From NCBI GenBank assembly GCA_902580945.1, contig CACHML010000006.1:16943-80942 (forward strand): DNA of 64,000 nucleotides, read 5' to 3'. The notes beneath the pieces were generated by a model, which was given only the letters and a program-made list of their open reading frames with translations, had not been told where the DNA came from and searched no databases. Each line of letters starts with the position of its first letter. The stretch's first letter is position 1. Source of the DNA: an uncultured Pelagibacteraceae bacterium. GTDB lineage: Bacteria; Pseudomonadota; Alphaproteobacteria; Pelagibacterales; Pelagibacteraceae. This document shows positions 43,206-63,668 of this stretch, piece by piece. The translations under genes were made by a program, and so were the position numbers.

Positions 43206-44332
43206 GCTTTTCTTTTATTTGAAATTTTACACGCTTCAATAAACTTTGCAGTTTCCAGCCCTTCATATTCATTTGGAAAAAACCACCTTTTTTTAGCTTT
43301 TGTTCTTAATGATTCTGCAAATTCTTTGTAAATGTTTGCAAAAGCATCTAGATAACCCTCTGGATGTCCAAATTTAATTCTTGAAAATTTTTTTGATAAT
43401 TCTGCATTAAAAAAACCTCTTTCTAAAAATTTTACAGCACCTTTTAATGGATTAAATTTAAGATAACCTGGATCATTTTGAACCCATTCTATGCTGCCTT
43501 TTGTGCCAAAAATCCTAAATCTTAAACCATAAACACCGCCTCTTGCCATAACACTTGTCCAAAGTAAGCCTTTTGCATTGTTATTAAAGTTGATCATTAC
43601 TTGAGCATTGTTATCCATTTTAACAGTTTTTGAAACTTGTTTGATATCAGCAAATACATTTCTACCTTTTAATCCAGAAACATAACATGCTATGTGATAA
43701 GCGTGAGATCCAATCTCATTTAAAACCGCTGAGGTTCCAACTATTTTTTTATTTATTTTCCATTTTAATATTTTTTTTGCATTTTTTTTGTTAACTATTT
43801 TTCCATCAGTCCAGTCTTGAACATACTCTACATTAACATATTCAACTTTTCCTATCTTCCCTTTTTCAACTAATACCTTTGCCTCTCTAACCATCGGATA
43901 TGCTGAATAATTATGAGTTAAAGCATACTTTATATTTTTATTTGATTTAATTTTTTTAAAAAGTTTTTTTGCTTGTGATAGATCACCTGTAAATGGCTTG
44001 TCAGATATTATATGAATATTTTTGTCTATAAATTTTTCTGCAATAACTTGGTGACTTGAAGGAGGAGTCATAATCGCCACGACCTCAATACCATCAAATC
44101 TTAGTGCCTCTTTATCAGCCATCTCTTGATAATTTGAGTAACATCTGTCTTTATCAATTCCTATTTTTTTGCCGAAAGTCTTTGAAATATTTGAATTTCT
44201 TGAAAAAACTCCTGAGACAATTTCATATTCGTCATCAAATCTTGAGGAAATTCTATGGACATGTCCTATCCATGATTTTGGACCACCGCCAACAATGCCT
44301 AATTTAATTTTTTTGCCTTTAATTAATCTCAT
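43187..44332 (-). CDS. Gfo/Idh/MocA-family oxidoreductase
   Basis: Start reassigned to the ATG at 44332 (MRLIKGKKIKLGIVGGG...). The longer tracked ORF would overlap iolE and encodes no recognisable sequence. SDKPF motif. Confidence 0.75.
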   Translation of the reverse strand: MRLIKGKKIKLGIVGGGPKSWIGHVHRISSRFDDEYEIVSGVFSRNSNISKTFGKKIGIDKDRCYSNYQEMADKEALRFDGIEVVAIMTPPSSHQVIAEKFIDKNIHIISDKPFTGDLSQAKKLFKKIKSNKNIKYALTHNYSAYPMVREAKVLVEKGKIGKVEYVNVEYVQDWTDGKIVNKKNAKKILKWKINKKIVGTSAVLNEIGSHAYHIACYVSGLKGRNVFADIKQVSKTVKMDNNAQVMINFNNNAKGLLWTSVMARGGVYGLRFRIFGTKGSIEWVQNDPGYLKFNPLKGAVKFLERGFFNAELSKKFSRIKFGHPEGYLDAFANIYKEFAESLRTKAKKRWFFPNEYEGLETAKFIEACKISNKRKAWTKIK

Positions 44333-44361
44333 GATCAAATATCTTAGCAAATATAAAAAAT

Positions 44362-45264
44362 ATGTCAGTAAAATTAGGGATAGCACCAATAGCGTGGAGC
44401 AATGATGACATGCCTGAACTAGGTGGAGACACTCCTCTTGAACAATGTTTATCAGAGGCAAGTCAGGCTGGATATATAGGTATAGAGTCAGGTGGAAAAT
44501 TTCCAAAAACATCCATGGAATTATTACCAAAACTAGAAAAGTATAATTTAAAATTATGTTCTGGATGGTACAGCGGGAATCTTAGAAAAAATTCTGTTGA
44601 AGAAGAAAAAAAATTAATTCAAAACCAGCTTCAATTATTTAAAGACTGTGAGGCTCCATGTATTGTATTTGCTGAAGTCTTTGAGTCAATACAAGGCGAT
44701 CCAAAAAAAAAACTATCTAGTAGACCAAAAATGTCCAATGATGAATGGAAAGATTATTGTGTAAAAATATCTGAACTTGCAAAATATCTTGAAGATGAGG
44801 GTATGCCATTAGCTTACCACCATCACATGGGTACAGTAATAGAAACGGAGGAAGAAACTATTAGATTGCTAGAAAATACAAGTGACAGCGTAAAATTAAC
44901 TTTAGATACTGGTCATATGCTATTTGCTCGAGGAAATTCTATTAATATAATCAATAAATTTAAAGAAAGAGTAATCCATATTCACTGCAAAGATATTAGA
45001 GAAGAAGTATTAAAAAAAGCGCTATCTGAAGATTTAAGTTTTAGAGATGCTTTTTTAGAAGGTGCTTTTACTGTGCCAGGCGATGGGTGTATCGACTATA
45101 AACCTCTGTTTGATATTTTGAAAAAAAATAATTACCAGGGTTGGTTGGTAGTGGAGGCTGAGCAAGATCCAAAAAAAGCAAATCCTCTTGAGTATGCAAT
45201 TATGGGTTATAAATATATTACAGATACTTTAAAGAAATCAAATTTAGAGATTGATAAACTATAA
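44362..45264 (+). CDS. iolE: 2-keto-myo-inositol (inosose) dehydratase
   Basis: GIAPIAWSNDDMPELG, YHHHMGT, TVPGDGCIDYKP and VVEAEQDPKKANPLEYA all match blocks of the recalled B. subtilis IolE. Confidence 0.9.
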   Translation: MSVKLGIAPIAWSNDDMPELGGDTPLEQCLSEASQAGYIGIESGGKFPKTSMELLPKLEKYNLKLCSGWYSGNLRKNSVEEEKKLIQNQLQLFKDCEAPCIVFAEVFESIQGDPKKKLSSRPKMSNDEWKDYCVKISELAKYLEDEGMPLAYHHHMGTVIETEEETIRLLENTSDSVKLTLDTGHMLFARGNSINIINKFKERVIHIHCKDIREEVLKKALSEDLSFRDAFLEGAFTVPGDGCIDYKPLFDILKKNNYQGWLVVEAEQDPKKANPLEYAIMGYKYITDTLKKSNLEIDKL

Positions 45265-46215
45265 TTTTACTTTTTTACTATCTTCAAGTTTGCCATCAAA
45301 AAAATCAAAAATATTTTGTATAGTTTCTATTGCCATTCTAGTCATGCACTCTTCAGTAAACGCTGCTGCATGAGGGCTAAGGAAAACTTTTTCATTTTTT
45401 AATAATGGATTGTCAGCTTCTGGAGGCTCTACTTCAAATACATCGATACCTGCTCCAAAAATTAGGTTCTCCTTTAATGCTCTATCTAAGTCTTTCTCAT
45501 TTATAATTCCACCTCTTGCAGCATTTATGATGATGCAATTTTTTTTCATAGTTTTAAGAAGTTCATAATTTATGATATTTTTAGTTTGATCAGTTAAAGG
45601 TATATGGAGTGACACAGCATCCATATCTTTTATTGTTTCTGATAAATCCTCAACTTTTTTTCCACCCATTTTGCTTATTGTTTCTGCATCTACAAATGGA
45701 TCATAAACAAAAACATTCATTTCAAATCCTAAACATCTTTTAATCAATGCTTTTCCAATTCTTCCAAAACCAGCTATAAGAATATTTTTGTTCCAAATCT
45801 CTATTGTTTTTGGAAGCTTATTTCTCTCAGTAAATTTTCCACTTCTGACTGATTGATCATACATACTTTTTCTTTTTGATATACTTAAAAGCATGAAAAG
45901 AACATGTTCTGCAACTGCTACAGCGTTTGCTGTTGCAGTTATCGCCACATCGATATTTCTTTTTTTACAGCTATTTAAATCAATATTGTCGTAACCAACT
46001 CCATGTCTAGAAATTATTTTAAGTTTTTTTGCATTTTCAATTGCTTCTGCAGGCAAAATTGATGTTCTTAAAGACACTGCATCAGCATCTATAATTTTTT
46101 GTTTAACGTTTTCAACGCTTAAATCCTCAACTACCTCGTAAGTATAGTTACTATTACTTTTTAATAATTCCATACCTTTTTCATGAATAGGTTGGACAAT
46201 GAGAATTTTTTTCAT
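45259..46215 (-). CDS. D-isomer-specific 2-hydroxyacid dehydrogenase (PGDH-like)
   Basis: GFGRIGKAL NAD motif, NAARGG, DVFEVEPP and SPHAAA catalytic-His region. Confidence 0.8.
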   Translation of the reverse strand: MKKILIVQPIHEKGMELLKSNSNYTYEVVEDLSVENVKQKIIDADAVSLRTSILPAEAIENAKKLKIISRHGVGYDNIDLNSCKKRNIDVAITATANAVAVAEHVLFMLLSISKRKSMYDQSVRSGKFTERNKLPKTIEIWNKNILIAGFGRIGKALIKRCLGFEMNVFVYDPFVDAETISKMGGKKVEDLSETIKDMDAVSLHIPLTDQTKNIINYELLKTMKKNCIIINAARGGIINEKDLDRALKENLIFGAGIDVFEVEPPEADNPLLKNEKVFLSPHAAAFTEECMTRMAIETIQNIFDFFDGKLEDSKKVKL

Positions 46216-46230
46216 AATTTAAAAATGAAA

Positions 46231-47220
46231 TTATATTAATCTAGCAAGATCTCTTTTACTATTTTTAAATGTTGGAAGTGGATATTTAAATGCATATTTT
46301 CTTGGTATACATTTATTTTTAGCTTTCTCCCATAAAGAGATCCATTGCTTATAATTATGAATAGTAATATTTTTTTTATTTCTACTTCTCACGTAAAAAT
46401 TTGGTAGAGGTTTTCTACCTGATGGAGTTCCAGCTCTGTTATATCTTAAGTCAGCGCTTATTCTAAAATCGTTAGATCTATTAGGTAAAGAACAATGTAT
46501 AGAGTGTTTGTGTAAAATAATTATATCACCCACATTTGCTTCCAGAAAAATTGGCTTAAATTTATCAAGTAATTTACTACCTTTTATCTCGACCTGACCT
46601 TTATATCCAGACACATGATTTAATAAACCCAGTTTGTTTATTTCTTTAACGGTAATCATGCATCCGTTATTTTTGGTAGTTTTTGTAAATGGTATCCAAA
46701 CGGTCACCATATCTGTCAATCTTTGTCCAACAGATGATAATACTGCTGCGTCTTGGTGCCAAGGAGTTCTACCTGAAAGTCCATCATGAACAGAGTGTCT
46801 AGGCAGTTTACTTTCTGGTTGTTTAATTCTTGTATTCTGAACAGGATTAGAAAGAATCTCAGATCCTATTAATTGTTCTACAACATCTAAAATTTTTTTA
46901 TGGTTTATTAAGTTCCATAAAGATTGTGATGCAAAGTAATCACTATCTTTTTTTACATTATCTCTAGGTAGTCTGGTATTAAAATGTTGGTCAAGATCAT
47001 AAATATTTAATTTTGATATATAGGTATATTTTCTTTTAAAATCATATTTAAAAACTTTTTCTCTCATATGTCTGGGTGCAAACTTATTAACTAGATTGTC
47101 CATTACATATTCCATATCGTTTAAGATAGGCTTTAAATCTTTGTTGAAATTAAGAATATTTTTTACCCTAAGGTATCCATCTCTATCTAAAATTTTCTTT
47201 AATTTGGTACTAACTTGCAT
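46231..47220 (-). CDS. PhyH-family Fe(II)/2-oxoglutarate dioxygenase
   Basis: DGYLRVKN start, WHQD (HxD facial-triad part), distal HKHSIHCSLPNRS segment. Confidence 0.7.
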   Translation of the reverse strand: MQVSTKLKKILDRDGYLRVKNILNFNKDLKPILNDMEYVMDNLVNKFAPRHMREKVFKYDFKRKYTYISKLNIYDLDQHFNTRLPRDNVKKDSDYFASQSLWNLINHKKILDVVEQLIGSEILSNPVQNTRIKQPESKLPRHSVHDGLSGRTPWHQDAAVLSSVGQRLTDMVTVWIPFTKTTKNNGCMITVKEINKLGLLNHVSGYKGQVEIKGSKLLDKFKPIFLEANVGDIIILHKHSIHCSLPNRSNDFRISADLRYNRAGTPSGRKPLPNFYVRSRNKKNITIHNYKQWISLWEKAKNKCIPRKYAFKYPLPTFKNSKRDLARLI

Positions 47221-48085
47221 GTATACAAGATTTTAGCAGATAATTTGAATCATGAAAAGATGTAAGCATTCTTTTTTTCGTCGCAACTATATGTGGGTGA
47301 TATTCAAAATTTTTATATTTCCATATAACAGGTTTATTAAATGCATAACTTCCATAAATAAAAAATCTTTTTGGACAGTTTTTTTCCTTAAATCGTGTTA
47401 CCCCATGATAAGAATTAGGAGTAGATTTAAAGAAAATTACGCTTCCCTTTTTTGGTGTAAACTCCACTAATTTATCAAGTTCATTAATTTTGGGAAATCT
47501 TCTAAAACTTTTTCTAAGGTTTCTGTTAGCTTTTTTTTTGTATAGAGTAAGAGACCCTCCATTTTTTTTTGGTATATCAGTTAAATATATCAAAAAATTA
47601 TATATTCTATTGATATCATCTCTATGCGGTCTCAATCTATACCCTCCTTTAGATACTGAAAAATCAATATCTAGATTTAAATTCGGGTTTTTATAATTTT
47701 TACCTAGCAATCTTTTTAGCTCTTTAGAATTTACTTTTCTTTTTAATGTATATTTTTTTTTATTAAATATTTTTGGTTTAAACAAACTTTCCCATGTATT
47801 TGCCTTAAACTCTGTTTTAAATTTATTATCAATTTTCTTATAAAATGATTCTGTATTGAAAGTAGCAAAAAGTTTTTTTGAGATTTTAGAAGTTGAGATA
47901 TATTTGTTGAAATTTTTTGACCCTTTGTTAATCCTACTTCTGCCACCCATAATCATATCATCGAAATTTTTTGAATTACTTATTTCTTTAATTAACGAAT
48001 TGCAGACTTTTTTACTGATTATTTGTTCTCCAACAATGACCGGGAAGTTTGATTTAATTTTCTTTAGTTTGTTAATTTTCAGCAT
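47210..48085 (-). CDS. 2OG-Fe(II) oxygenase-superfamily protein (prolyl-hydroxylase-like fold)
   Basis: RPHRDD (HxD), FLIYL...GGSLTLY, P-x-x-GSVIFF and distal NSYHGV pattern. Confidence 0.55.
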   Translation of the reverse strand: MLKINKLKKIKSNFPVIVGEQIISKKVCNSLIKEISNSKNFDDMIMGGRSRINKGSKNFNKYISTSKISKKLFATFNTESFYKKIDNKFKTEFKANTWESLFKPKIFNKKKYTLKRKVNSKELKRLLGKNYKNPNLNLDIDFSVSKGGYRLRPHRDDINRIYNFLIYLTDIPKKNGGSLTLYKKKANRNLRKSFRRFPKINELDKLVEFTPKKGSVIFFKSTPNSYHGVTRFKEKNCPKRFFIYGSYAFNKPVIWKYKNFEYHPHIVATKKRMLTSFHDSNYLLKSCIHAS

Positions 48086-49030
48086 TTAGCTGTACATACC
48101 CTCTTTTACTTTAATCATTTTGTACATAAGATCATTTAAAGGTGTGGCTATTCCATGTTTTTTTCCTATTTTAGATACAGCTCCACTTATGAAATCAATT
48201 TCAGTTTTTCTTTTGTAAAGTACATCAAAAGCCATTGAGGACTTGTTTGTTTGTTTTGAATCAACAATTTTATTAAACATAAATAAACACTCATCTTCAG
48301 AAACATTAACGCCATCTGCTAAAGCAACTTTTCTTGTTTCTAAAATAATCTCTTTACCTAAACTTCTAGATACGTCATTGGCATTATTATTTATGTAAAG
48401 ATCAGTATGATGTAGATCAAAAATAGCTGAAAGTGGACCAATTGCGGTTAAAGCAAAAAGTTTCATCCATTTTCTTTTTTTTACATCCTCAGCTGCAATC
48501 ATTTCTAAATTATGCGCTGTAAATGTGTCTGCAATTTCTGTTATTCTATCTGTTATTCCACCATCATATTCTCCAATCCAAGAAGGTAAAGCTGCATGAT
48601 TCATAATATGACCAGGGCCTAAGATATTTGATGCTTGAGTTGTTGTTCCTCCAATTACTTTTTCATCGCCAACAATACTTTTAATTATAGCTTCATGTCC
48701 AATTCCATTTTGAAAAGACATAAAAACTGTTTTATCTCTAATAATGTTTTTAATACTTTTTAAAGCTGGTTCTAGAGCTGTTGCTTTACACATTACTATT
48801 ACAGCATCAACTTTTCCAATTGTAGATGGATCTGATGTTGCAGGTATTCTTATAAATCTATCACCACCATGGCCATCCATTTTTAGACCATTTTTATTAA
48901 TTTCTTCAACATGCTCTTTCCAAACATCAATGAGCGTTACATTAAGACCTTTTTCTGCTAGAAGACCTCCAAATAGACAACCCATTGCTCCTGCACCAAG
49001 AACTGCAACTTTTAAATCTTTATTATTCAT
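48086..49030 (-). CDS. 2-dehydropantoate 2-reductase (KPR/ApbA) family oxidoreductase
   Basis: VLGAGAMGCLFG Rossmann motif, FQNG, KWMKL lysine region, SSMAFDVLYKRKTEID C-terminal motif. Confidence 0.8.
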   Translation of the reverse strand: MNNKDLKVAVLGAGAMGCLFGGLLAEKGLNVTLIDVWKEHVEEINKNGLKMDGHGGDRFIRIPATSDPSTIGKVDAVIVMCKATALEPALKSIKNIIRDKTVFMSFQNGIGHEAIIKSIVGDEKVIGGTTTQASNILGPGHIMNHAALPSWIGEYDGGITDRITEIADTFTAHNLEMIAAEDVKKRKWMKLFALTAIGPLSAIFDLHHTDLYINNNANDVSRSLGKEIILETRKVALADGVNVSEDECLFMFNKIVDSKQTNKSSMAFDVLYKRKTEIDFISGAVSKIGKKHGIATPLNDLMYKMIKVKEGMYS

Positions 49031-49093
49031 ATTTAAAATCGAAATATATTTATGTAAAAAAATTATGCAATATATTATGTAACTAATTAATAT

Positions 49094-50062
49094 ATGAAAT
49101 TAAAAATAGAAAAAGGAATTTTCAAAAAATTTGAGTTAAAAGAAATATCAAACGCATTAGAAAAAGGTCTGTCAAAGAATTATGACAGTGTGAAAGCAGA
49201 AGTAATTGATTGCCCAAATTTAAGAAATTGGGATTGTCCGTCTGAAGGTATGAGTGGTAACCAAAGGATAATCGATGTTGGAGGAGAGCCCTACATGCAC
49301 GATCCTAAATATCTTGGAACTGAATTTGATTATGCTGAAATCTCAAAAATGATTGGATCAGAAAAATCATATGCACTTGGAGCAGGATCTGGAGCAATGT
49401 CTTGCCTCGATGGACACTGTGGAGAACTAGTTATAAATGAAAACTTAATAACAAAAGAAAATAAGTCTTTAATTGCCAGGGTAGGGAAAGATAAAGAATG
49501 TATAGTAGAGGACTATACTGCAAGCAAACATGGTGGGCTTGGTAACATTTATTATTCAGATGGTGTTAAAGGAAAAGTTATTTATTTAAACATAAAAAAA
49601 AGAACTGGAAATCAAGGTTCATTACCTCAATCAATTAGAACAGCACTTTCTGAAAATCTTAAAATTGGGTATAAAAATCATATTGCTCTTGCTGGTGTAT
49701 TTAGAGTTTTGAATGGAAAAATAAGATCACACGTACAACCAGATTATAAGGATATAAAACATGAATATTATGATCCACAATTGATGAAATGCACAAAAGA
49801 TTTTCTACAATTTTATGAGCCTGTTGGACCAAAATTACAATGCTATACTGTTTTATGGACTGGTGATCCAACGGGAGGAGAATTAAATTTAAGAGAGTCT
49901 GGAGAGCATACTCACTTCCACTCATATGAGCATAAAAATGACGCTGGACATTATCATTTTGACGTATCACCTGATGAAATTGAATATGAGGGATACTTTA
50001 ATATTGCACAAGAAGTACATAGAGTGAATAATATCTATAAAGAATTAAAAAATATAAAATGA
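49094..50062 (+). CDS. DUF1907 protein (homolog of eukaryotic C11orf54-type Zn enzyme)
   Basis: VIDCPNL, DVGGEPY, LGAGSGA, KKRTG and the His cluster EHTHFHS...GHYHFD..PDEIEYEGYF align with my recollection of human C11orf54. Confidence 0.7.
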   Translation: MKLKIEKGIFKKFELKEISNALEKGLSKNYDSVKAEVIDCPNLRNWDCPSEGMSGNQRIIDVGGEPYMHDPKYLGTEFDYAEISKMIGSEKSYALGAGSGAMSCLDGHCGELVINENLITKENKSLIARVGKDKECIVEDYTASKHGGLGNIYYSDGVKGKVIYLNIKKRTGNQGSLPQSIRTALSENLKIGYKNHIALAGVFRVLNGKIRSHVQPDYKDIKHEYYDPQLMKCTKDFLQFYEPVGPKLQCYTVLWTGDPTGGELNLRESGEHTHFHSYEHKNDAGHYHFDVSPDEIEYEGYFNIAQEVHRVNNIYKELKNIK

Positions 50063-50874
50063 AAAAGATTTATACTTGGGCTGCTCAACCTGCCAACAGA
50101 TCTCTCACAGTTGATGATCTAAAAAAGGCAAAAGGAAAAAAAAAATTTACTCAAGTCACAGCCAATACACTAGATGAAGCTGAGGCCGCAGAGATAGCTG
50201 GATTTGATATGATAATCTGCAATGCTTTTAATGTAAAACAGGTGAGAGAGGGATCAAAGAATCTATTTTTAACTGCTGCACTAGTATTAAATAAGTTTGT
50301 CACTTCAGATGATATAATGAGAGGAGCGTTTGAAGCCTTAGAAAATGGAGCTGACGCTGTAATGACTCCTAGAAGCATGAAAATAGTAGAGATGTTGGCT
50401 AATGAAGATGTTCCGGTTATGGGGCATCTTGGTTTAGTTCCAAGAAAATCTACGTGGATTGGTGGATTAAGAGCAGTAGGAAAAAATAGTGAGGAGGCAC
50501 ACAACCTTTTTTTAAAATTTAAAAGATTGGAAAATGCGGGAGCCTTTTCTGCTGAATGTGAGGTTATACCAGAAAATGTTATGGGAGAAATCTCTAAAAG
50601 AACAAATATAGTTACAGTTTCTTTAGGTTCAGGAAAAAAAGCAGATGTAATGTATTTGTTCATGGAAGACATATGTGGAGATACTTTAAACCCTCCAAGA
50701 CATTCAAAAGCTTATGGGAATTTATTAAAATTAAAAAATGAAATAAAAATTGAGAGAATTCGAGCTCTCAAGGCATTTAAAAAAGATTCTATGGCTGGAA
50801 AATTTCCAGGAAAAAAACAGTCTTCAAATTTAAATAAAAAAGAGTTTGAGTCCTTTCTTGATAAACTAGATTAA
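50059..50874 (+). CDS. PanB-like (ketopantoate hydroxymethyltransferase fold) protein with non-canonical active-site residues
   Basis: MGHLGLVPRK and ECEVIPE match PanB blocks CGHLGLTPQS and LECVPVE. The VGDSLGM block reads ICNAFNV and the region before GHLGL is ~27 aa shorter. ATGA overlap with DUF1907. Confidence 0.65.
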   Translation: MKKIYTWAAQPANRSLTVDDLKKAKGKKKFTQVTANTLDEAEAAEIAGFDMIICNAFNVKQVREGSKNLFLTAALVLNKFVTSDDIMRGAFEALENGADAVMTPRSMKIVEMLANEDVPVMGHLGLVPRKSTWIGGLRAVGKNSEEAHNLFLKFKRLENAGAFSAECEVIPENVMGEISKRTNIVTVSLGSGKKADVMYLFMEDICGDTLNPPRHSKAYGNLLKLKNEIKIERIRALKAFKKDSMAGKFPGKKQSSNLNKKEFESFLDKLD

Positions 50875-51662
50875 TAAGTTTCAGATTCTTTTTTATTTAT
50901 TGAACCCTTCATTTTTTCTACAATCGCTTTAGCACCAGCGCTCATTGCTCTTTGATCAGCTCCTATAGTCACAAAATTAAAACCTTTATCAATCATTTTT
51001 TGAGCATACTCAGTTGTTCCATTATGTATTCCTGCAAAGATATTATGTTTTTTAGCATGCTCTAATATTCTTAATATTTCAGAATATGCTTTTGTGTCCT
51101 CTGCTCTGTCAAAGCCAGGCTTTTCTCCAATCGCTAAACTTAAGTCAGCTGGACCAATATATATCCCATCCACACCGTCAGTAGACATAATCTCATCTAG
51201 TTTATCTAATGACTCCTTCGTTTCAATCATAGCTAACTTTAAAATTTCATCATTTGCATGATCAGCATAATCAGGACCACCATAAATTAATCCTCTGACT
51301 GGGCCAAAACTTCTATATCCTCTTGGAGGATACATGCATGCTTGTACAAATCTTTCTGCCTCTTCTTTATTGCTTACCATAGGGCAAATTATTCCATAAC
51401 AACCAGCGTCTAAAATTTTCATTATTTGTCCTGGTTCATTCCAATTTACTCTTGCAAGAGGCGTTACATCAGTTGAAGAAATTGTTTGAAGCATTGGAAG
51501 TGCGTTTGTGTAATCAACAAGTCCATGTTGCATATCAACAGTCAGGGAGTCCCAACCTTGATGCGCCATAACTTCTGCAGATACTGTGCTAGGTATTTGT
51601 AACCAGCCATTAACAACTGGCTTTCCTTCAGCCATCATTTGTTTTACTTTATTTTTTCTCAT
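50871..51662 (-). CDS. HpcH/HpaI-family class II 2-keto-3-deoxy-acid aldolase
   Basis: ~260 aa TIM-barrel pattern with DMQHG, MIET/E and GPADLS motifs characteristic of HpaI/GarL/YfaU. Confidence 0.85.
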   Translation of the reverse strand: MRKNKVKQMMAEGKPVVNGWLQIPSTVSAEVMAHQGWDSLTVDMQHGLVDYTNALPMLQTISSTDVTPLARVNWNEPGQIMKILDAGCYGIICPMVSNKEEAERFVQACMYPPRGYRSFGPVRGLIYGGPDYADHANDEILKLAMIETKESLDKLDEIMSTDGVDGIYIGPADLSLAIGEKPGFDRAEDTKAYSEILRILEHAKKHNIFAGIHNGTTEYAQKMIDKGFNFVTIGADQRAMSAGAKAIVEKMKGSINKKESETY

Positions 51663-53104
51663 TAATAATTAAGACCAAAATGAGTATATTTAATATTTAA
51701 ATAATCCTTGATAGCCATTGATCCACCCTCTCTGCCATAACCTGTCTGTTTGATACCTCCAAAAGGAACTTCTGCAAACGCAATAGTAGGATGATTTACT
51801 GCACATGTTCCAGTTTCCATTTTTTCTGAGACTTTGTGAGCTTTTTCTAAAGAATTTGTATAAATATAGCTTGCCAAACCTAAGTCATTGTCGTTAGCTC
51901 TTTTAACAACTTCATCTGTATCTTTAAACGTAAGTAGTGGAACTAATGGTCCAAAAGGTTCTTCTTTTGCAATTGTAAAGTTATCTTGAACATTGTCAAA
52001 AATAGTAGGTTCATAAAAATATCCTTTATTAAAACCTGATGGTCTCTTTCCACCACATAAAACAGTTGCTCCTTCTTTTTTTGTTTTCTCGACTAATGCT
52101 TCTATTTCATTCAATCTCTTTTCTGTGGTTAATGGACCTAATATTGTGTCGTCATCCATTCCATTTCCAATTTTAAGTTTAGAAACTTTTTCAACTAATG
52201 TTTTTGCAAACTCATCTTTTTTCTTTTCATGTATATAAAATCTTGCTGGTGATATACAAACCTGGCCGTTATTTCTAAATTTTGCTGTTATTGCCATATC
52301 TGTAACTTTATTTATATCTACATCATCAAAAACTATAAAAGGTGAGTGACCACTTAATTCCATAGTAACTCTTTGCACTTTTTCAGCGGCTTGCTTTAAA
52401 ATAAGTTTACCAACTCTAGTCGATCCAGTAATAGAAACTTTTTTTACTATGTCAGAAGATATTAATTGTGATGAAATTTGTGCTGGATCACCTGATAATA
52501 AATTAACAACACCAGGAGGAACTCCTGCATCATTTATAATATTCATTAGTTCCATTACACTTCCCGGAGTAATAACATCTGGCTTACATATAACTGAGCA
52601 CCCAGCTGCTAAGGCAGTTGAAATTTTTCTAGAAGATAAAACTATTGGAAAATTCCATGGTATTAATCCTGCAACAACACCAACAGGCTCGTATTTTACA
52701 TACATTCGTGTGTGTTCAAATCTGCTCTCTACTATCTGGCCATATATTCTTTTTGTTTCTTCAGAATTCCATTCAAAAATATCTGCTGCTCCTCCTACTT
52801 CTCCTTTTGCTTCTGACAAAGGTTTTCCAACTTCTAATGTAAGCCATTTTGCTAGTACATCAGTTCTCTCTCTCATAAGATCTGCAATATTTCTTATAAT
52901 TTTTGATCTTTGCCAAGGTGGAGTATTTCTCCAAACTTCAAGACCTTTTTCAGCTGACTTAAGAGCTTTATTTACATCTTCTTCTCCAGCTTTTGATGCT
53001 TTGCCAATTACTTCTTCAGTTGCCGGATTTAACACATCGTAAGTTTCATTATTTTGAGATGGTTGCCATTTACCATCAATGAATTGTCCAAATTTGCTAT
53101 ACAT
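51662..53104 (-). CDS. NAD(P)-dependent aldehyde dehydrogenase
   Basis: WNFP, ELSGHSP (catalytic Glu region), GQVCISP (catalytic Cys), EEPFGP. Its stop overlaps the aldolase start by 1 nt. Confidence 0.9.
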   Translation of the reverse strand: MYSKFGQFIDGKWQPSQNNETYDVLNPATEEVIGKASKAGEEDVNKALKSAEKGLEVWRNTPPWQRSKIIRNIADLMRERTDVLAKWLTLEVGKPLSEAKGEVGGAADIFEWNSEETKRIYGQIVESRFEHTRMYVKYEPVGVVAGLIPWNFPIVLSSRKISTALAAGCSVICKPDVITPGSVMELMNIINDAGVPPGVVNLLSGDPAQISSQLISSDIVKKVSITGSTRVGKLILKQAAEKVQRVTMELSGHSPFIVFDDVDINKVTDMAITAKFRNNGQVCISPARFYIHEKKKDEFAKTLVEKVSKLKIGNGMDDDTILGPLTTEKRLNEIEALVEKTKKEGATVLCGGKRPSGFNKGYFYEPTIFDNVQDNFTIAKEEPFGPLVPLLTFKDTDEVVKRANDNDLGLASYIYTNSLEKAHKVSEKMETGTCAVNHPTIAFAEVPFGGIKQTGYGREGGSMAIKDYLNIKYTHFGLNY

Positions 53105-53159
53105 AATTTTTATTTTATGGTTTATTAGTTGAATTTTTGAGGAGAATATAACTAGAAAA

Positions 53160-55004
53160 ATGAAAAAAATAAAGCTTACTTGCGCTCATGCTTTAGTTAA
53201 ACATCTAATAGCTCAAAAAATCTATATAGATGGTAAAGTTGAGCCTTTATTTCCAGGGGCATTTGGTATTTTTGGTCATGGGAATGTTGCGTGCATAGGT
53301 CAAGCATTAGAAGAAAATAAGGATAAACTTCCAACTTATAGAGGGCACCATGAACAAAATATGGCTTTAACAGGCATTGCTTTTGCAAGAGCTAAACGCA
53401 GAAAACAAATTTTTATTGCAACAAGTTCTGTTGGGCCTGGATCTACAAATTTAGTCACTGCGTCTGCAGTAGCGATGAGTAATAGATTACCTATTTTATT
53501 TTTACCTGGAGATACTTATGCGAATAGAATGCCAGATCCTGTACTACAGCAAGTAGAGCATTTTTCAAATCCAGGAATGACAGCAAACGACTCTTTTAAA
53601 CCAGTTACAAAATATTTTGATAGAATTACAAGACCTGAACAAATAATACAATCTCTTCCACAAGCAATTCAAACAATGCTTGATCCTGCAGATACTGGTC
53701 CAGCGTGTTTATCTTTATGTCAAGACGTGCAAGGAGAAATATTTGATTATTCAGAGGAATTTTTTAAAGAAAGAATACATAATATAAGAAGACCTAAACC
53801 AGATGATTTTCAAATTAAACAAGCAATGGAAAAAATTAAAAAATCAAAAAAACCAATTATTATTTCTGGGGGAGGTGTTTTCTATTCAGATGCAATGGAT
53901 GAATTAGGAAGTTTTGCCATAAAACATAACATACCAGTTACACAAACAGTGATGGGATACTCAACAATGAAAAGAGATCATTCTCATTTTCTCGGACCAA
54001 TAGGAGGCCTTGGTGGTAGAGCCGCAAATAACTTAGCAAAAGAAACTGATTTAGCTATTTGTGTTGGTACGAAATTGGCAGATTTTACAACAGGTTCGTG
54101 GGCTAATTTTGAAAATCCTGAATTTAAATTGGTTTCAATTAATATTGCAAGACATGATGCAAACAAACATTTAGCCGAGGCAGTTATTGGAGATGCTAAA
54201 GTTTGTTTATCAGAGTTATCAAATTCTTTAGGAAATTGGAAATCTCCTGACAGTTGGCATAAAAAATCACAAGACGAACTTAAATCTTGGAATGAGTATG
54301 TTGATAAAGAAAGCGGTCCAACAAACCAAGAAACACCAAACTATGCACATGCCGTAGGGGCAATTTATCGAAATTCAGATCCAACAGATATAGCAGTTAC
54401 TGCTGCTGGTGGGTTGGTTGGTGAGGTAGTCCAAGTCTGGAGACCAAAAGAGCTAAATACGCATGAAACTGAATGGGGTTTTAGTTGCATGAGTTATGAA
54501 ATTTCTGGTGCGCTGGGAATTAAGATGGCAAATCCTGACAAAGACGTAATAGCTTTTGTGGGAGATGGTTCTTATTTGCTTAACAATTCAGACATCTATT
54601 CTTCAGTTTTAACAAATAACAAATTAATAATAATTGTTTGTGATAATGGAGGTCATGCAGTTATAAATAGACTTCAATTGTTTAAGGGTGGAAAAGAATT
54701 TAATTGCTTATTTAATTCATCTAATATTCAAAATTTTAAAGAAGTAAATTTTGCTCAACACGCAGCTAGCATGGGTGCAAAATCTGAGCATGTTTCCACT
54801 ATTTCAGAATTAGAGGAAGCATTTAAAAGAGCTAAAAAATCAGATGTAACATATGTAATATCAATAAAAACTCATAGTTACGAATGGCTTGAAGGTTCAG
54901 CTTACTGGGAAAGTCCTACGCTTGAAATACCAACAACGAAAGAAAATGAGGAAGCTTTAAAACTTCATAAAGAAGGTAAAGCAAAACAAAGACAAGGTGT
55001 CTGA
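53160..55004 (+). CDS. iolD: 3D-(3,5/4)-trihydroxycyclohexane-1,2-dione acylhydrolase (ThDP-dependent)
   Basis: KIKLTCAHALVKHL...FGIFGHGNV...DPVLQQVE...RITRPEQ...GDGSYLL blocks match the recalled B. subtilis IolD end to end. Confidence 0.9.
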   Translation: MKKIKLTCAHALVKHLIAQKIYIDGKVEPLFPGAFGIFGHGNVACIGQALEENKDKLPTYRGHHEQNMALTGIAFARAKRRKQIFIATSSVGPGSTNLVTASAVAMSNRLPILFLPGDTYANRMPDPVLQQVEHFSNPGMTANDSFKPVTKYFDRITRPEQIIQSLPQAIQTMLDPADTGPACLSLCQDVQGEIFDYSEEFFKERIHNIRRPKPDDFQIKQAMEKIKKSKKPIIISGGGVFYSDAMDELGSFAIKHNIPVTQTVMGYSTMKRDHSHFLGPIGGLGGRAANNLAKETDLAICVGTKLADFTTGSWANFENPEFKLVSINIARHDANKHLAEAVIGDAKVCLSELSNSLGNWKSPDSWHKKSQDELKSWNEYVDKESGPTNQETPNYAHAVGAIYRNSDPTDIAVTAAGGLVGEVVQVWRPKELNTHETEWGFSCMSYEISGALGIKMANPDKDVIAFVGDGSYLLNNSDIYSSVLTNNKLIIIVCDNGGHAVINRLQLFKGGKEFNCLFNSSNIQNFKEVNFAQHAASMGAKSEHVSTISELEEAFKRAKKSDVTYVISIKTHSYEWLEGSAYWESPTLEIPTTKENEEALKLHKEGKAKQRQGV

Positions 55005-55013: not shown

Positions 55014-56171
55014 ATGAACAAAGTTTTCAAAGTTGGTCTTATTGGTTGTGGACATATTGCAGAAACTTATTTTAGAGCAGAGAAATATTTTAATAATATC
55101 AAAATAATTAAATGCGCAGATATTAATTTAAAAGCTGCAGAAAAATGTTCTAAAGAATATGGAATCAAATTTTTAAGTGTAAATGAAATTCTAAAAGATC
55201 AAGAAGTAGAAATTATTTTAAATTTAACTATCCCAAAAGCTCATTACGAAATTTCAAAGAGAGCTTTATTAAATGGTAAACATGTTTACTCAGAGAAACC
55301 ATTGGCAATTAATTTAAAGGATGGAAAAGAACTTTTAAAAATTTCTAGAAGGAAAAAGTTATATCTTGGTAATGCACCAGATACATTTTTAGGAGGCGGA
55401 ATTCAAAAATCAAAAGAGCTAGTTGAAAAAAATATAATTGGAAAAATAAAATTAGGTAATGCTGTTTTTGCCTTTCCTGGAATTCAATCATATCACCCTA
55501 ATCCAGAACCATGGTTTGCAAAACTTGAAGGAGGTCCTGTAATTGATATGGGACCATATTACATTACAGCTTTAGTAAACCTTTTAGGACCTGCAAAGAA
55601 AGTTAGTGGGAGAATAATAAATGGTTCAAAATACAGAACAATTGGAATTGGACCAAAAAAAGGTAGAAAATTTAAAGTTAATTGCCCAACAACCTATCTA
55701 TCTACAATCACCTTTAAAAATAACACAGTAATTAGATTGACGTTATCTTTTGATGTCATTGCTCACCAAAGAAATCATATTGAGCTATATGGTGAAAAAG
55801 GTTCAATGATTGTCCCTGATCCAAATATGTTTGGAGGATCAGTATTCACATGTAAAAAACTTGGAGATAATTGGAAAGAATTTAAAACTACAAAAATGCA
55901 TTTAGGTAAAATTAATATAAGAACACAAAGTTCAAGAGCAAATGAAGCTCCAACTAATGCAAACTATAGAGGTGCAGGACTTTCAGAAATGGCTTATTCA
56001 ATCGAAAAAAAAAGAAAACATTTATGCAATGGTGAAATTTCTTTGCATGTCCTTGATATAATTACTTCAATTATGAAAGCTTCAAAGTCTGGTGTTAATC
56101 AATCAATAAATACTGACTGTGTTAAACCAAAAAAGTTTACAAATATTGATATAAGAAAAATAATTAGATAG
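55014..56171 (+). CDS. Gfo/Idh/MocA-family oxidoreductase
   Basis: VGLIGCGHIA Rossmann motif and SEKPLA motif, 385 aa. Confidence 0.8.
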   Translation: MNKVFKVGLIGCGHIAETYFRAEKYFNNIKIIKCADINLKAAEKCSKEYGIKFLSVNEILKDQEVEIILNLTIPKAHYEISKRALLNGKHVYSEKPLAINLKDGKELLKISRRKKLYLGNAPDTFLGGGIQKSKELVEKNIIGKIKLGNAVFAFPGIQSYHPNPEPWFAKLEGGPVIDMGPYYITALVNLLGPAKKVSGRIINGSKYRTIGIGPKKGRKFKVNCPTTYLSTITFKNNTVIRLTLSFDVIAHQRNHIELYGEKGSMIVPDPNMFGGSVFTCKKLGDNWKEFKTTKMHLGKINIRTQSSRANEAPTNANYRGAGLSEMAYSIEKKRKHLCNGEISLHVLDIITSIMKASKSGVNQSINTDCVKPKKFTNIDIRKIIR

Positions 56172-56180: not shown

Positions 56181-57203
56181 ATGATTAAACCTATTGTAAT
56201 TTCTGATCCTTATCCAAGAACTTTGGATTTAATTTTTACTAAGACAAAATTAAAAGAACTAAAAAACAAATATAAAATAATAGTTGCTCCAAAAAAAAAT
56301 AAAAAAAAATTTTATGAAAACAATATTGGCAAGGCAACATTTATCATGGGTCAACCTAATTTAGACAAACATTTGTTGTCTAAGGCATCAAAATTAAAAT
56401 GTATTATAAATGTAGAAAGTAATTTTATGGATAATTTAGACTATGATTATTGTTTCAAAAAAAATATTCATGTTATTGCAACTTCACCAGTATTTTCAAA
56501 GCCAGTAGCTGAAATAGCTTTAGGTATGACATTGTCTCTTTTAAGAAATATTCACAATGCACATTTTGATTTTATTAAATCTAAAGAGAAATATGGTTTA
56601 GAAAGTAATTTAGAAGCTTCACTTCTGACAAATAAAAAAATTGGGTTAATAGGGTTTGGAGACTTAGCAAAATCTTTATATCCTTTACTTTTGCCATTCT
56701 CAAAAAATATTAATGTATATGATCCATGGATACCTAAAAATAAAATAAAAAAAATTGGATTTAACCCAATTAATTTGAATAAAATGTTTAGTAGTTGTGA
56801 AGTAATTTATGTATTAGCCACAATCACTAAAAAGAATAAACATTTAATTGATAAGAAATTATTAAATAAAATGAAATCTGGCACTGTTTTTATTTTAATG
56901 AGTAGAGCAGCAATAGTTAATTTTAAAGATTTGATTAAGAGAATTAAAAAGGGAGATATTTATGTCGCAACCGATGTCTTTCCAGATGAACCAGTAAAAA
57001 AAAATGATCCAATAAGAAAGTTAAAAAATACACTATTTTCTGCTCATAGAGCTGGTGCTTTAGAAGAAGCTTTTTATAATATGGGTGAAATAGTTTTGAA
57101 AGATATGAAGCTTATTTTAAAAAATATGCCACCTAAATTCTGTAAAAGAGCTCAAAGAAAAACTGTAAAACTCTTAGCCTCAAAACCAGTTGCAATTAAC
57201 TGA
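56181..57203 (+). CDS. D-2-hydroxyacid dehydrogenase-like NAD-binding protein
   Basis: IGLIGFGDLAKSL, SRAAIV, TDVFPDEP and SAHRAG (catalytic His region). Confidence 0.7.
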   Translation: MIKPIVISDPYPRTLDLIFTKTKLKELKNKYKIIVAPKKNKKKFYENNIGKATFIMGQPNLDKHLLSKASKLKCIINVESNFMDNLDYDYCFKKNIHVIATSPVFSKPVAEIALGMTLSLLRNIHNAHFDFIKSKEKYGLESNLEASLLTNKKIGLIGFGDLAKSLYPLLLPFSKNINVYDPWIPKNKIKKIGFNPINLNKMFSSCEVIYVLATITKKNKHLIDKKLLNKMKSGTVFILMSRAAIVNFKDLIKRIKKGDIYVATDVFPDEPVKKNDPIRKLKNTLFSAHRAGALEEAFYNMGEIVLKDMKLILKNMPPKFCKRAQRKTVKLLASKPVAIN

Positions 57204-57225: not shown

Positions 57226-57976
57226 ATGTCATCTGCCAATCAATTATTATTAGAAGCCAAAAATGTTACAAAATACTTTGGCACAATTACTGCTCTTGAA
57301 AACGTAAACCTTAAAATTCATGCAGGTGAATGCTTAGGAGTTGTAGGAGACAATGGAGCAGGAAAAACAACATTAATGAAGGTTTTATCTGGCCTATATA
57401 AACCAAGTGCAGGCTCTTTACATTTTGAAGGAAAAGAAAAAGTTTTAGAAAGTCCCAGAGATTCTCAAAACTTAGGTTTAGAAATGGTTTATCAAGATTT
57501 AGCTTTAGCAGGCAATCTTCCAATAGGCGAAAATATTTTTTTAGGCCGTGAACCAACTACTAATTTGGGATTATTAAAGTTTCTTGATTATAAAAAAATA
57601 AAAGAACTTACAGAAGCACATCTAGGCAAACTTAAAATAAATGTAAAGAGTGCAGATCAAAAAGTCGAGGAACTTTCAGGTGGACAAAGACAAGCAGTTG
57701 CAATTGCAAGATCAACAGCATTCAATGCAAAAGTAGTGATTATGGACGAACCAACAGCAGCATTAGCTATTAAAGAAGTTGGTAAGGTTTTGGATTTAAT
57801 AAATAGTCTGAAAAAAAACTGGCGTAGGCGTAATTGTGATCAGTCATAGAATGGATGATATTTTTGCAGTTTGTGACCGAGTAATGGCATTGTTTCAAGG
57901 AACGAATTTTGCAGAATCTGAATTATCAAACACTTCAAGAGATGAAGTTATTGGATGGATAATGGGTAAAAAATAA
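57226..57976 (+). pseudogene. sugar ABC transporter ATP-binding protein (single NBD), reading frame broken by one extra base in an A8 run at 57811-57818
   Basis: Frame A carries Walker A GDNGAGKTT, LSGGQRQ and Walker B VVIMDEPT, then stops at 57849. The +1 frame from 57821 reads GVGVIVISHRMDDIFAVCDRV... (H-loop) to a TAA at 57974-57976. An A7 run would give LKKTGVGVIVISHR. Confidence 0.8.
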
Positions 57977-61471: not shown

Positions 61472-62647
61472 TTATTCGATTATTTTGAAATCTGATTTAA
61501 ATTTATCAGTAATAGCTAAACCCAGACCAGGTTTATTGTCGTCCAAGTTAATAAATCCGTTTTCAGGAGCTGGGTCACCTTCAAAAATATAGTAAAATAG
61601 CTCATTACCAATTTCTACATCGTGCACAGGAAAAAATTCGGATATAGGACAATTAAAGTTAGACATTGTTAAATGATAATTATGCATTTGCCCAGCATGT
61701 GGAATAACTGGTACTTGATAAGCTTCTGCTAACGCATTTATTTTACTCGCAATAGTAAAACCACCAACTCTATTATTATCATATTGAATATAACTAACTG
61801 CTTTTAAATCTAACAATTGTTTAAATCCAAATAAGTTGAATTCATGTTCTCCACCAGATATTGGAATAGCATTCATATTATTTAGTTCAGCATAACCATG
61901 AATATCGTCTGCTATAACAGGTTCTTCTAACCATCTAGGATTAAACTTTACTAATTTAGGAATCATTCTTTTAGAGTAGTCTAAATTCCATCCCATATAA
62001 CATTCCATCATAAGGTCTGTGTCATAACCAATCACTTCTCTAACAGCCTCTGCTAGTTCCAAATTTTTCTTCATTCCATCAGGTCCGTCTTTTGGTCCCC
62101 ATCCAAATCTCATTTTAAACATTTTAAAACCTTGATTAACGTAACTTTCAGCTTCTTTTTGTAGTTCTTTTATTGGTTGGCTATAAAGTTTTGAGGCATA
62201 GACTGGAATTTTCTCTTTAGTTCTTCCACCTAATAATTTGAAAACTGGTTTATTTGTAATTTTTCCCATTATGTCCCACAAAGCAATATCAATTGCTGAA
62301 ATAGCGACCATTCCTAATCCTCTTCTACCCCATGCATGAGTTCTTCTGTACATTTTTTCCCAAATATACGCATAATCAAAAGGGTCCTCACCAATAACTA
62401 AAGGAGTTAAATAAGTATCAATGGTTTTTTTTACTAATTGTGGTGCAAGTGCTGCATTTCCAATTCCAATAATTCCATCGTCTGTTTCAACTTCACATAT
62501 TAACCATTCATGAAATCTAAAAGATCCCATTGCATCTGATTTTTCAAATAAAAGGTCAGAAGCATTTGTACAAAAATTATTTTGCGGTGGAACAGTTTTG
62601 CCATTCCATTGGTAAACTCTTGTTCTTATACTTTTAATCTTTGTCAT
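61472..62647 (-). CDS. enolase-superfamily (mandelate racemase subgroup) acid-sugar dehydratase
   Basis: Start reassigned to the ATG at 62647 ([11 protein letters not shown]...). [25 protein letters not shown] and SGGEHE metal-ligand pattern. Confidence 0.8.
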
Positions 62648-62669
62648 TTTTTTTTTATATTTTGCAATT

Positions 62670-63668
62670 TCATAATCTATTTTTATTTTCAGCCATTGTA
62701 AGTGCAATTTTAAACGAATTCAAAGTTGGTTCTAAATTTGCTATATTTTTACCAGCAATATCAAAAGCTGTACCATGGGCAGGAGTTGTAATGGGTACAG
62801 GAAGACCTCCTTGGACGGTTACACCTCGGTCAAATCCAAACGCTTTTAACCCAGATTGAAGTGCATCATGATACATTCCAACAATACAATCGTGATTTCC
62901 GTTTTTATATGCTGTTATAAATGAAGTATCACAAGGTAGAGGACCATCAGCATTTATTCCCAATTTTTTTACCTCTTCAATTGCTGGTATAATTTCATCT
63001 TTTTCCTCTGTACCAAATTCAGCGTGAGGATTAAGTGCCTGAACAGCTACTCTTGGTTTTTTTATACCATTTAGTTTCATTGCTTCATTAATCAGTTTAA
63101 TTGGTTCGATTATTTTTTCTTTTTTTATATTATTTGGGACTTCTCTAATTGGAATATGTGATGTTACTCGCGCAGTCCAAAAATTATCAATTACATTAAA
63201 TTCACAAAAAAAATTTTTAACTTTAAGCTTTTCAGCCATTAAGTGTAATTCATCAGAATATCTATTACCACCAAGTTTAAGACTTGTTTTATTAAATGGA
63301 CCAAAATTTATTGCATGAATTTTTTTTTCTTTAGCTAATTCTAAAGCAATATTAAGAGCCGACAGAACACTTTCACCTGATTCTTTTGAACATTCTGACA
63401 GCTTATAATCATGATTTTTGCCTTGAGTAATGTCTAGAAAAAATTTATTACTTTTTTTAAAATCTATTTTGTCAAATTCATCTACATAATTAATATTATG
63501 TTTGTTGCCTGAAATTTCATTTCCATTTTCTAAAATTTTTCTCTCTCCAATTATAATTATATTAGCTTTATTTGTAATATCCTCGCTCAATAACTTTGAG
63601 ACCAATTCGGGTCCTATGCCCGAAGGGTCACCAAGTAATAATGCAATATTAATTTTATTAAGAGACAT
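62670..63668 (-). CDS. PdxA-family NAD-dependent 4-phospho-hydroxyacid dehydrogenase, second paralog (PdxA2-like)
   Basis: [29 protein letters not shown] and [12 protein letters not shown] mirror the PdxA motifs but in a sugar-acid context. Confidence 0.8.

Follow-up and report, generated by a model that had tools for sequence, protein, structure and literature searches.

The breakdown of myo-inositol is regarded as a solved pathway. Its canonical form, that of Bacillus subtilis, runs through IolG, IolE, IolD, IolB, IolC, IolJ and IolA; the proteobacterial iolCDEB genes include an IolC-DUF2090 fusion, and Price et al. proposed the DUF2090 domain as the proteobacterial substitute for IolJ (PMC9007349). 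In a large survey, iolB, iolC, iolD and iolE serve to define inositol clusters (PMC9430895). Full-text searches of the literature returned no description of an oxidative fate of 5-deoxyglucuronate, the product of the ring-opening hydrolase IolD, and none of inositol catabolism in SAR11. Here, we analyse three genes that accompany iolD in a genome of the SAR11 family Pelagibacteraceae and that encode an aldehyde dehydrogenase (ALDH), an aldolase of the HpcH/HpaI family and a D-isomer-specific 2-hydroxyacid dehydrogenase (2-HADH). The window, i.e. the whole stretch of 64,000 nucleotides that was analysed (G000:C6:16943-80942), comes from a genome of 1.23 Mb in 31 contigs that is 91.9% complete; its G+C content is ~28-34%, and its proteins are up to 99% identical to those of Pelagibacteraceae single-cell genomes and isolates.

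The core of the locus is a divergent gene arrangement. The gene for the NAD(P)-dependent ALDH (51662-53104, minus strand; PF00171, 551.8 bits) and that for the class II (metal-dependent) 2-oxoacid aldolase (50871-51662, minus strand; PF03328, 108.6 bits against a cut-off of 25) overlap by one base, the last of the ALDH stop codon being the first of the aldolase start codon. Both face iolD, the gene for the thiamine pyrophosphate (TPP)-dependent hydrolase (53160-55004, plus strand), across an intergenic region of 55 nt (53105-53159) in which both promoters are placed on the basis of the list of open reading frames (ORFs). The IolD protein scores 785.4 bits against TIGR04377 (cut-off 715), covers positions 1-615 of the 616 in this model and matches all of PF02776, PF00205 and PF02775. 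Coordinates and family scores thus confirm the overlap, the spacing and the three gene families that an earlier note on this DNA had described. The note omitted three further genes of the locus, namely iolE for myo-inosose-2 dehydratase (44362-45264, plus strand; TIGR04379, 412.2 bits against 290), an iolG-like gene for an inositol 2-dehydrogenase of the GFO/IDH/MocA family (42195-43205, minus strand; TIGR04380, 345.2 bits, slightly under the cut-off of 355), and the 2-HADH gene (45259-46215, minus strand; PF02826, 178.5 bits; PF00389, 106.3 bits). The last of these is the third conserved member of the module; five genes are inserted between it and the aldolase gene here, which is why the earlier note did not connect the two.

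In our assessment, these three enzymes probably make up a lower branch of cyclitol catabolism (of the myo-inositol type) that is oxidative, needs no kinase and stands in for IolB, IolC and IolJ. The searches and comparisons reported below are the basis for linking the module functionally to iolD and for regarding the textbook lower pathway as absent; support for the three genes as a system is good, and the chemistry assigned to their enzymes is a proposal.

The textbook lower pathway was searched for with curated NCBIfam equivalog cut-offs for family membership and with Pfam models for domains, and the reference control genomes matched as expected in the searches for iolB, iolC, DUF2090 and PF01116. 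In the genome that contains the window, no match was found to iolB (TIGR04378), to DUF2090 (PF09863) or to the class II fructose-bisphosphate aldolase/IolJ type (PF01116), and the best iolC candidate reached 89.8 bits against a cut-off of 300 (TIGR04382); the PfkB-family gene of the window is a ribokinase (TIGR02152, 314.9 bits against 299.65). In view of the 92% completeness of this genome, the searches for iolB and iolC were repeated in the 12 other iolD-positive genomes of a sample of 61 Pelagibacteraceae genomes (13 iolD-positive ones including our own). None of the 12, among them the closed, 99% complete genome G023, matched iolB, and none matched iolC at E<=1e-40. A canonical iolBCJ set elsewhere, which the earlier note had named beforehand as counter-evidence to an oxidative branch, was accordingly not found in the genome itself, nor were iolB and iolC in its 12 relatives. 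The CoA-acylating malonate-semialdehyde dehydrogenase MmsA/IolA is encoded on contig C20, unlinked to the window (TIGR01722, 700.7 bits against 448.5).

Conservation of the module within and outside SAR11

Within SAR11, the aldolase follows iolD closely. The iolD gene is present in 13 of the 61 sampled genomes, and an aldolase orthologue (67-79% identity) is confined to these 13 and one further genome, which is 86% complete. Twelve of the 13 iolD-positive genomes carry the aldolase gene on the iolD contig, ~1.5 kb away. A scan of species-representative genomes yielded 42 SAR11 loci, ~40 of which show a GFO/IDH/MocA gene (hereafter GFO) and iolD facing ALDH-HpcH, with a divergent spacer of 49-95 nt in 38 loci. 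This arrangement is not due to chance. The sequence of the spacer is poorly conserved between SAR11 genera and its length varies over the range just given, and a conserved operator in the 55-nt region was dropped as a candidate. The proteins of the module and of the iol genes are 65-99% identical across the five SAR11 genera of the family sample and retain their catalytic motifs; the cultured carriers include HIMB1748, HIMB1587 and HIMB1485.

The 2-HADH gene is also conserved with the aldolase gene. All SAR11 genomes checked have an orthologue in the island and, where it falls outside the 10-kb flank, it lies just beyond it on the same contig; in other SAR11 loci (L017, L018 and many more), it directly follows the aldolase gene. 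The five genes that separate the two in the window (46231-50874; by Pfam, a PhyH-like protein, a 2-oxoglutarate-Fe(II) oxygenase, a KPR-like reductase, a DUF1907 protein and a PanB-like protein) occur only in a subset of SAR11 loci (e.g. L041-L044, L048 and L053-L058), and the loci that lack them have HpcH and then directly 2-HADH. The five-gene block is not part of the conserved module and may represent an accessory module for the processing of 2-oxoacids. Relatives of two of its genes also turn up near the aldolase elsewhere: G196 has a PanB-like gene at a distance of 9 kb (L021), and in G105 a PhyH-like gene separates HpcH from mmsA (L011).

The SAR11 genomes are closely related and syntenic, so that counts within the family overstate the independent support for the module, a point that tells against a confident reading of them; the comparison was therefore extended to 400 Alphaproteobacteria outside SAR11, 55 of which carry iolD. 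At least nine of these 55, from six families, encode an aldolase with 45-54% identity to that of the window within 5 kb of iolD. The recurring unit is iolE-iolD facing iolG-ALDH-HpcH-2HADH, the latter series with or without a terminal GFO gene (G207, G131, G376, G130 and G272), and the same-strand unit iolG-ALDH-HpcH-2HADH also faces iolE-iolD in a metagenome-assembled genome (MAG) of the Dongiaceae. The iolG of the recurring unit passes its cut-off (396 against 355 bits), the 2-HADH is a homologue of the window gene, and the iolG-like protein of the window is 37-42% identical to IolG of module loci outside SAR11. A gammaproteobacterial MAG, of Amphritea, has on one strand the series iolG-TauE-ALDH-HpcH-2HADH-iolD-SDR-mmsA-iolD-GFO. 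No match to iolB was found in G207, the Dongiaceae MAG or the Amphritea MAG, and mmsA lies inside two of the non-SAR11 versions of the cluster. The HpcH-2HADH pair is kept together, though unlinked to iolD, in the iolD-positive G260, G456, G126, G324, G421 and L098. Altogether, iolB was unmatched in 18 of the 55 iolD-positive Alphaproteobacteria outside SAR11, and 12 of these 18 have a close homologue of the aldolase. The co-occurrence and synteny in SAR11 and the recurrence in iol operons outside it bear out the earlier suggestion that the ALDH-aldolase pair belongs functionally with iolD.

Where a genome has several copies of iolD, the module goes with one of them. In G131, one of three copies is accompanied by the module and the other two lie beside iolC genes that pass the cut-off; in G159, one of two copies is with the module and the other adjoins iolC-like and iolB-like genes that score under their respective cut-offs. 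A maximum likelihood tree of 46 IolD proteins (quick search, no bootstrap, midpoint rooting, several rows with skewed amino-acid composition) gives a similar picture. Its deepest split, supported on either side by an SH-aLRT value of 100, separates all 15 module-linked copies, together with the dehydratase-type variants described below and the SAR11 proteins, from 16 of the 19 copies adjacent to iolB or iolC. Alphaproteobacterial IolD proteins (L009-L037, L083-L084 and L121-L140) fall into two deep clades, each fully supported, one with iolB/iolC as neighbours and the other with ALDH/HpcH/2-HADH or IlvD-type genes. Judged by this tree, the module marks an IolD lineage of its own. A separate observation concerns G196, where two iolD homologues stand back to back and divergent (L028, 8131-11968); one of them, on a very long branch and 36.7% identical to IolD of the window, may have a different function.

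Predicted enzymes, candidate chemistry and competing explanations

The ALDH has its catalytic Glu in the motif MELSGH and its catalytic Cys in GQVCISP. Its nearest relatives of solved structure are Escherichia coli GabD and the alpha-ketoglutaric semialdehyde dehydrogenase (KGSADH) of Azospirillum brasilense. The protein scores under every equivalog cut-off, including that for succinate-semialdehyde dehydrogenase (TIGR01780, 499.7 against 646.35 bits), and for this reason is not filed as that enzyme. GabD and KGSADH act on aldehydes with a distal carboxylate, a feature that 5-deoxyglucuronate shares. The ALDH falls in this clade of omega-carboxy-aldehyde enzymes, in line with the earlier note, in which it oxidises an aldehyde-acid.

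The 2-HADH displays the motifs GFGRIG (GxGxxG), NAARGG, DVFEVEP and SPHAA and the Arg-Glu-His triad. It scores under every NCBIfam equivalog cut-off; its nearest solved relatives are an archaeal phosphoglycerate dehydrogenase (PGDH), McyI, and glyoxylate/hydroxypyruvate reductases. PGDH and McyI work oxidatively on anionic D-2-hydroxyacids.

In the aldolase, the His and Arg of the active site (H46 and R71) and both acidic ligands of the metal (E147 and D173) align with their counterparts in GarL and RhmA of E. coli. Among solved structures, SwHKA of Sphingomonas wittichii is the closest, with a full-length match of 206 bits against 143 bits for HpaI and ~126 bits for GarL, and all the equivalog models score well under their cut-offs: HpaI (TIGR02311) 178.4 against 368.8, GarL 152.1 against 406.75 (TIGR03239) and 156.3 against 393 (NF007849), and RhmA (NF007521) 110.2 against 441. 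SwHKA converts hydroxypyruvate, an ability that its authors credit to the aromatic residue F210 in place of a conserved Leu (PMC10099721). The equivalent position is Leu in GarL and RhmA and His213 in the aldolase of the window, and this His is invariant in 16 module-linked orthologues.

Aldolases that are 54-57% identical to that of the window are also encoded in Limnohabitans (L090, 7572-11687), Variovorax (L101, 7646-9975) and Caballeronia (L095, 10001-12602). The neighbours are a TctC receptor and an enolase-type dehydratase in Limnohabitans and Variovorax, with a GarR-family reductase in addition in Limnohabitans, and a GarD-family dehydratase in Caballeronia; two Burkholderiales genomes with aldolase homologues were checked and are iolD-negative, and in both of them an enolase-family dehydratase accompanies the aldolase in place of a 2-HADH, in one together with a GarR-family reductase. 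These loci look like an uncharacterised GarL-analogous aldarate pathway that employs the SwHKA-like subfamily, and their dehydratases and reductase lend substance to the parallel with the GarL reaction drawn in the earlier note.

From these families, a dehydratase-free sequence of reactions can be proposed. The ALDH should act first, since neither a 2-oxoacid aldolase nor a 2-HADH can accept 5-deoxyglucuronate before its C1 has become a carboxylate; it would oxidise the aldehyde of 5-deoxy-D-glucuronate to give 5-deoxy-D-glucarate. With no dehydratase, a 2-oxo group could arise only by oxidation of the C2 hydroxyl, the D configuration of which suits a D-specific 2-HADH; this enzyme would thus oxidise the hydroxyl beside the new carboxylate, yielding 3,4-dihydroxy-2-oxoadipate. 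The aldolase would then split the C3-C4 bond, with the release of hydroxypyruvate and malonate semialdehyde, and MmsA of contig C20 would turn the latter into acetyl-CoA and CO2. The earlier note likewise had malonate semialdehyde as a product, which the presence of MmsA in this genome and inside the two non-SAR11 clusters renders plausible. Hydroxypyruvate might be transaminated to serine or else reduced, for which this 2-HADH or the second one is a candidate, and in the case of reduction the two redox steps would balance.

The place of a dehydratase is the main issue in weighing this scheme. In the ~50 loci mapped, no dehydratase is linked to the ALDH-HpcH-2HADH version of the cluster. A different version is found in G167 and G105, with the order iolD-GFO-IlvD-type dehydratase-SMP30 lactonase-XylB-like SDR-HpcH, continued in G105 by PhyH-MmsA; its dehydratase reaches 951 bits and passes the cut-off for L-arabinonate dehydratase, the cluster includes no 2-HADH, and neither iolB nor iolC was found in the two genomes. 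In G252 (L037, 9236-17999), iolD faces iolE-IlvD-like dehydratase-ALDH-GFO-binding protein, and no iolB and no HpcH homologue were found in the genome. 5-Deoxy-D-glucuronate has the D-xylo configuration and thus would resemble a carboxylated D-xylose. The chemistry of the earlier note, i.e. oxidation, dehydration and aldol cleavage, fits these two versions well. The dehydratase and the 2-HADH appear as alternatives beside the aldolase, and the presence of the conserved 2-HADH in the SAR11 module points to a dehydratase-free route with hydroxypyruvate, rather than pyruvate, as the product.

The identity of this C3 product is the least certain point of the scheme. Taken on its own, the specific proposal of a dehydratase-free and ATP-free end of inositol catabolism, in which a SerA/McyI-like 2-HADH and a class II aldolase would generate hydroxypyruvate and malonate semialdehyde and feed serine and glycine synthesis in SAR11, is tentative and, on balance, the odds are against it; granted an oxidative branch, we lean mildly towards the dehydratase-free version, leaving a large share of belief with the pyruvate-forming one.

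Several observations weigh against the proposed branch or this version of it. In six of the nine non-SAR11 alphaproteobacterial genomes with a linked aldolase, iolB and iolC are retained elsewhere, so that the module is not simply a replacement; the claim that it takes the place of IolB, IolC and IolJ holds for SAR11 and some other genomes and fails for these six. The loci of G159 and G387 have iolG-HpcH with no adjacent ALDH gene, and a 2-HADH gene, kept in G159, was not seen at the G387 locus. His213 was dropped as a marker of hydroxypyruvate use, His at the equivalent position being a trait of the whole subfamily that is shared by all 38 non-SAR11 homologues examined, including those from loci with dehydratase-type neighbours. 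The subfamily is broad, members of 54-59% identity being found in contexts of the glucarate type, for which pyruvate is expected, and SAR11 would gain more from pyruvate as a product. The NAD-linked oxidation of a 2-hydroxyacid is thermodynamically uphill. Glycerate kinases of class I (PF02595) and class II (PF05161) were not found on any contig of the genome (class III was not searched), so that hydroxypyruvate would have to go to serine or another sink; this result is also a constraint on any route with glycerate as its end. Finally, all the chemistry is deduced from enzyme families and gene context.

The most serious competitor, which we consider possible but rather improbable, retains the oxidative branch and assigns the middle step to an unlinked dehydratase, e.g. 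the housekeeping IlvD encoded on contig C9: 5-deoxyglucarate would be converted to 4-hydroxy-2-oxohexanedioate and cleaved to pyruvate and malonate semialdehyde, with only a side role for the 2-HADH. The IlvD/EDD dehydratases of the G167/G105 clusters, which occur with no 2-HADH in genomes that lack iolB and iolC, provide a precedent, as do the iolE-IlvD-like-ALDH series of G252 and the enolase- and GarD-family dehydratases beside the Burkholderiales aldolases, for which pyruvate is expected; the failure to find a glycerate kinase of class I or II in the genome points the same way, and pyruvate is a preferred substrate of SAR11. This explanation has to contend with the lack of any linked dehydratase in the ~50 mapped loci with ALDH-HpcH-2HADH and leaves the universal pairing of aldolase and 2-HADH unexplained. 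It would also load the step onto the single IlvD-family gene of the genome; a second IlvD/EDD dehydratase was looked for there, and only the C9 gene was found.

A further possibility, which we hold to be unlikely, is that the genes belong to an ordinary non-phosphorylative acid-sugar pathway of the Dahms/GarL type that is unrelated to the product of IolD: the aldolase would split a 2-keto-3-deoxy sugar acid, the ALDH would oxidise the released aldehyde and the 2-HADH would reduce the keto-acid, the adjacency to iolD resulting from clustering in the island. Aldolase and ALDH pairs normally run in this order, as they do in the HpaI/HpaE, L-rhamnose and L-fucose routes; members of the subfamily serve glucarate-type clusters, and ribose genes, like genes for further unrelated enzymes, are present in the island as well. 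Such an origin of the adjacency is difficult to reconcile with the position of the three genes inside same-strand operons, between iolG and iolD or mmsA, in several unrelated lineages, and with the way in which their occurrence tracks iolD in SAR11. Moreover, no dehydratase or sugar-acid transporter is co-conserved with the module, and the SAR11 genomes would be left with no use for the IolD product.

The exact route of the earlier note, in which the aldolase substrate comes from the enolase-superfamily dehydratase of the window (61472-62707, minus strand, given there as 61472-62647), is very improbable. The gene lies only 8 kb off and belongs to the acid-sugar dehydratase group (PF13378 and PF02746, best match to L-rhamnonate dehydratase at 218.8 bits, under the cut-off). 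It was rejected for this step on its distribution, which is uncorrelated with iolD in SAR11: orthologues occur in 11 of the 61 genomes, 10 of them iolD-negative, and are missing from 12 of the 13 iolD-positive genomes, so that our own genome is the only one with both; the gene is paired with a PdxA2-like gene beyond the ribose cluster and absent from most SAR11 iol loci. Equally hard to credit is that iolG, iolE and iolD of SAR11 are relics or serve the detoxification or interconversion of cyclitols, with no further metabolism of 5-deoxyglucuronate, an idea to which the streamlining of these genomes and the truncated ORF for the ATPase of the adjacent ABC importer lend some colour but which ill suits genes that are intact over five genera, with the identities and motifs given above, in streamlined genomes that rarely retain eight or more useless genes.

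Surrounding genes

Two GFO/IDH/MocA oxidoreductases complete the iol genes of the window. The first, at 43187-44350 on the minus strand (PF01408, PF22725 and PF02894), adjoins iolE in SAR11 loci; its longest ORF, which extends to 44530, would overlap iolE, so that the true start is probably at ~44350. This protein may act on a cyclitol as a further dehydrogenase, or it may oxidise an intermediate formed after ring opening. The second (55014-56171, plus strand; Pfam) is co-operonic with iolD and lies directly 3' of it in nearly all SAR11 loci that reach that far, and a further GFO gene also closes several module operons outside SAR11. It is followed by the gene for a second, accessory D-2-hydroxyacid dehydrogenase (56181-57203, plus strand; PF02826), which comes after iolD-GFO in many, although not all, SAR11 loci.

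Downstream of iolD, there is a ribose-type cluster with an RbsB/AlsB-like binding protein, rbsD and a ribokinase that passes its cut-off. The ORF for the ABC ATPase (57226-57849) encodes 207 amino acids and, of the 500 residues in RbsA-type models, matches no more than the first ~190; accordingly, the gene looks truncated or frameshifted. This importer was considered as an inositol transporter and set aside, given the best match of its binding protein and its position with rbsD and the ribokinase gene; a role in ribose uptake is more likely. In other SAR11 islands, a different ABC system adjoins iolG.

The gene for the enolase-superfamily dehydratase is paired with the PdxA2-like gene (61472-63668). 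With orthologues of the dehydratase in 10 other SAR11 genomes, all iolD-negative, the pair looks like a separate acid-sugar system. Alignments of the dehydratase begin ~19 codons inside the longest ORF, which places its true start probably at ~62650. In some SAR11 genomes, the aldolase gene borders genes for a glycosyltransferase, a GDP-mannose dehydratase, an aminotransferase and a phage-type integrase (L065, 11044-16951; L073, 10786-15453), so that the iol island abuts a cell-surface hypervariable region.

Comparison with known systems

A second lower branch of inositol catabolism, if confirmed, would change the substrate predictions for an appreciable fraction of the bacteria in sea and soil, about one-fifth of the sampled SAR11 species among them: the 18 iolD-positive Alphaproteobacteria outside SAR11 with no iolB match and all 13 iolD-positive SAR11 genomes are those for which predictions of substrate use would be altered. 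A definition of inositol clusters by iolB, iolC, iolD and iolE would miss the clusters described here, and tools of the GapMind kind would score their carriers as inositol-negative. The branch would also provide natural functions for the large and biocatalytically exploited SwHKA-like subfamily of aldolases and for the orphan ALDH and 2-HADH, and the distinct IolD clade would mark the system across several proteobacterial lineages. Should the hydroxypyruvate route hold, the release of hydroxypyruvate by an HpcH aldolase would be without precedent among natural pathways, and algal cyclitols would be tied to the known serine/glycine requirement of SAR11, the most abundant heterotroph in the ocean.

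Among the described systems, cyclohexane-1,2-dione hydrolase of Azoarcus offers a likeness to the upper part of the proposed pathway, in that the ring of a 1,2-dione is opened by a TPP enzyme and the aldehyde-acid so formed is oxidised to a dicarboxylate; it differs in that the same enzyme carries out the oxidation, the substrate has no hydroxyls and no aldolase step follows. The Dahms and Weimberg pentose pathways (XylB-XylC-XylD of Caulobacter) share with the proposed branch the non-phosphorylative design, C1 oxidation, the formation of a 2-oxo group and aldol cleavage, and the G167/G105 clusters use XylB-like, SMP30 and IlvD-type genes. The SAR11 version departs from them in having an ALDH for the sugar dehydrogenase and lactonase and a 2-HADH for the dehydratase.

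At the level of the single enzyme, SwHKA (S. wittichii RW1, PDB 6R62), which uses hydroxypyruvate as well as pyruvate (PMC10099721), shares its metal ligands and catalytic His and Arg with the aldolase of the window; it differs at Phe210, which contacts C3 of hydroxypyruvate and is replaced by His213. The GarL pathway of E. coli (GarD/GudD, GarL, GarR, GarK) resembles the module in the aldolase family, the six-carbon dicarboxylic sugar acid, the release of an aldehyde-acid and the presence of a dehydrogenase gene after the aldolase gene. The aldolase of the window is, however, only 31% identical to GarL and far under its cut-off; no dehydratase is co-conserved, the partner dehydrogenase is of the 2-HADH family rather than the GarR (3-hydroxyisobutyrate dehydrogenase) family, and the substrate would be a 5-deoxy analogue, either 3-hydroxy or 3-deoxy.

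The closest relationship is with canonical myo-inositol catabolism itself. Relative to the B. subtilis pathway, the ALDH, the class II HpcH aldolase and the 2-HADH would take the place of IolB, IolC and IolJ or DUF2090; the canonical pathway phosphorylates with ATP and yields dihydroxyacetone phosphate, whereas the SAR11 route would require no ATP before cleavage and would give a 2-oxoacid, and the IolD proteins of module-type loci form a separate clade. What the two have in common is the upper half, with an iolG-like gene, iolE and iolD, and, probably, the end of the pathway, malonate semialdehyde and MmsA/IolA.

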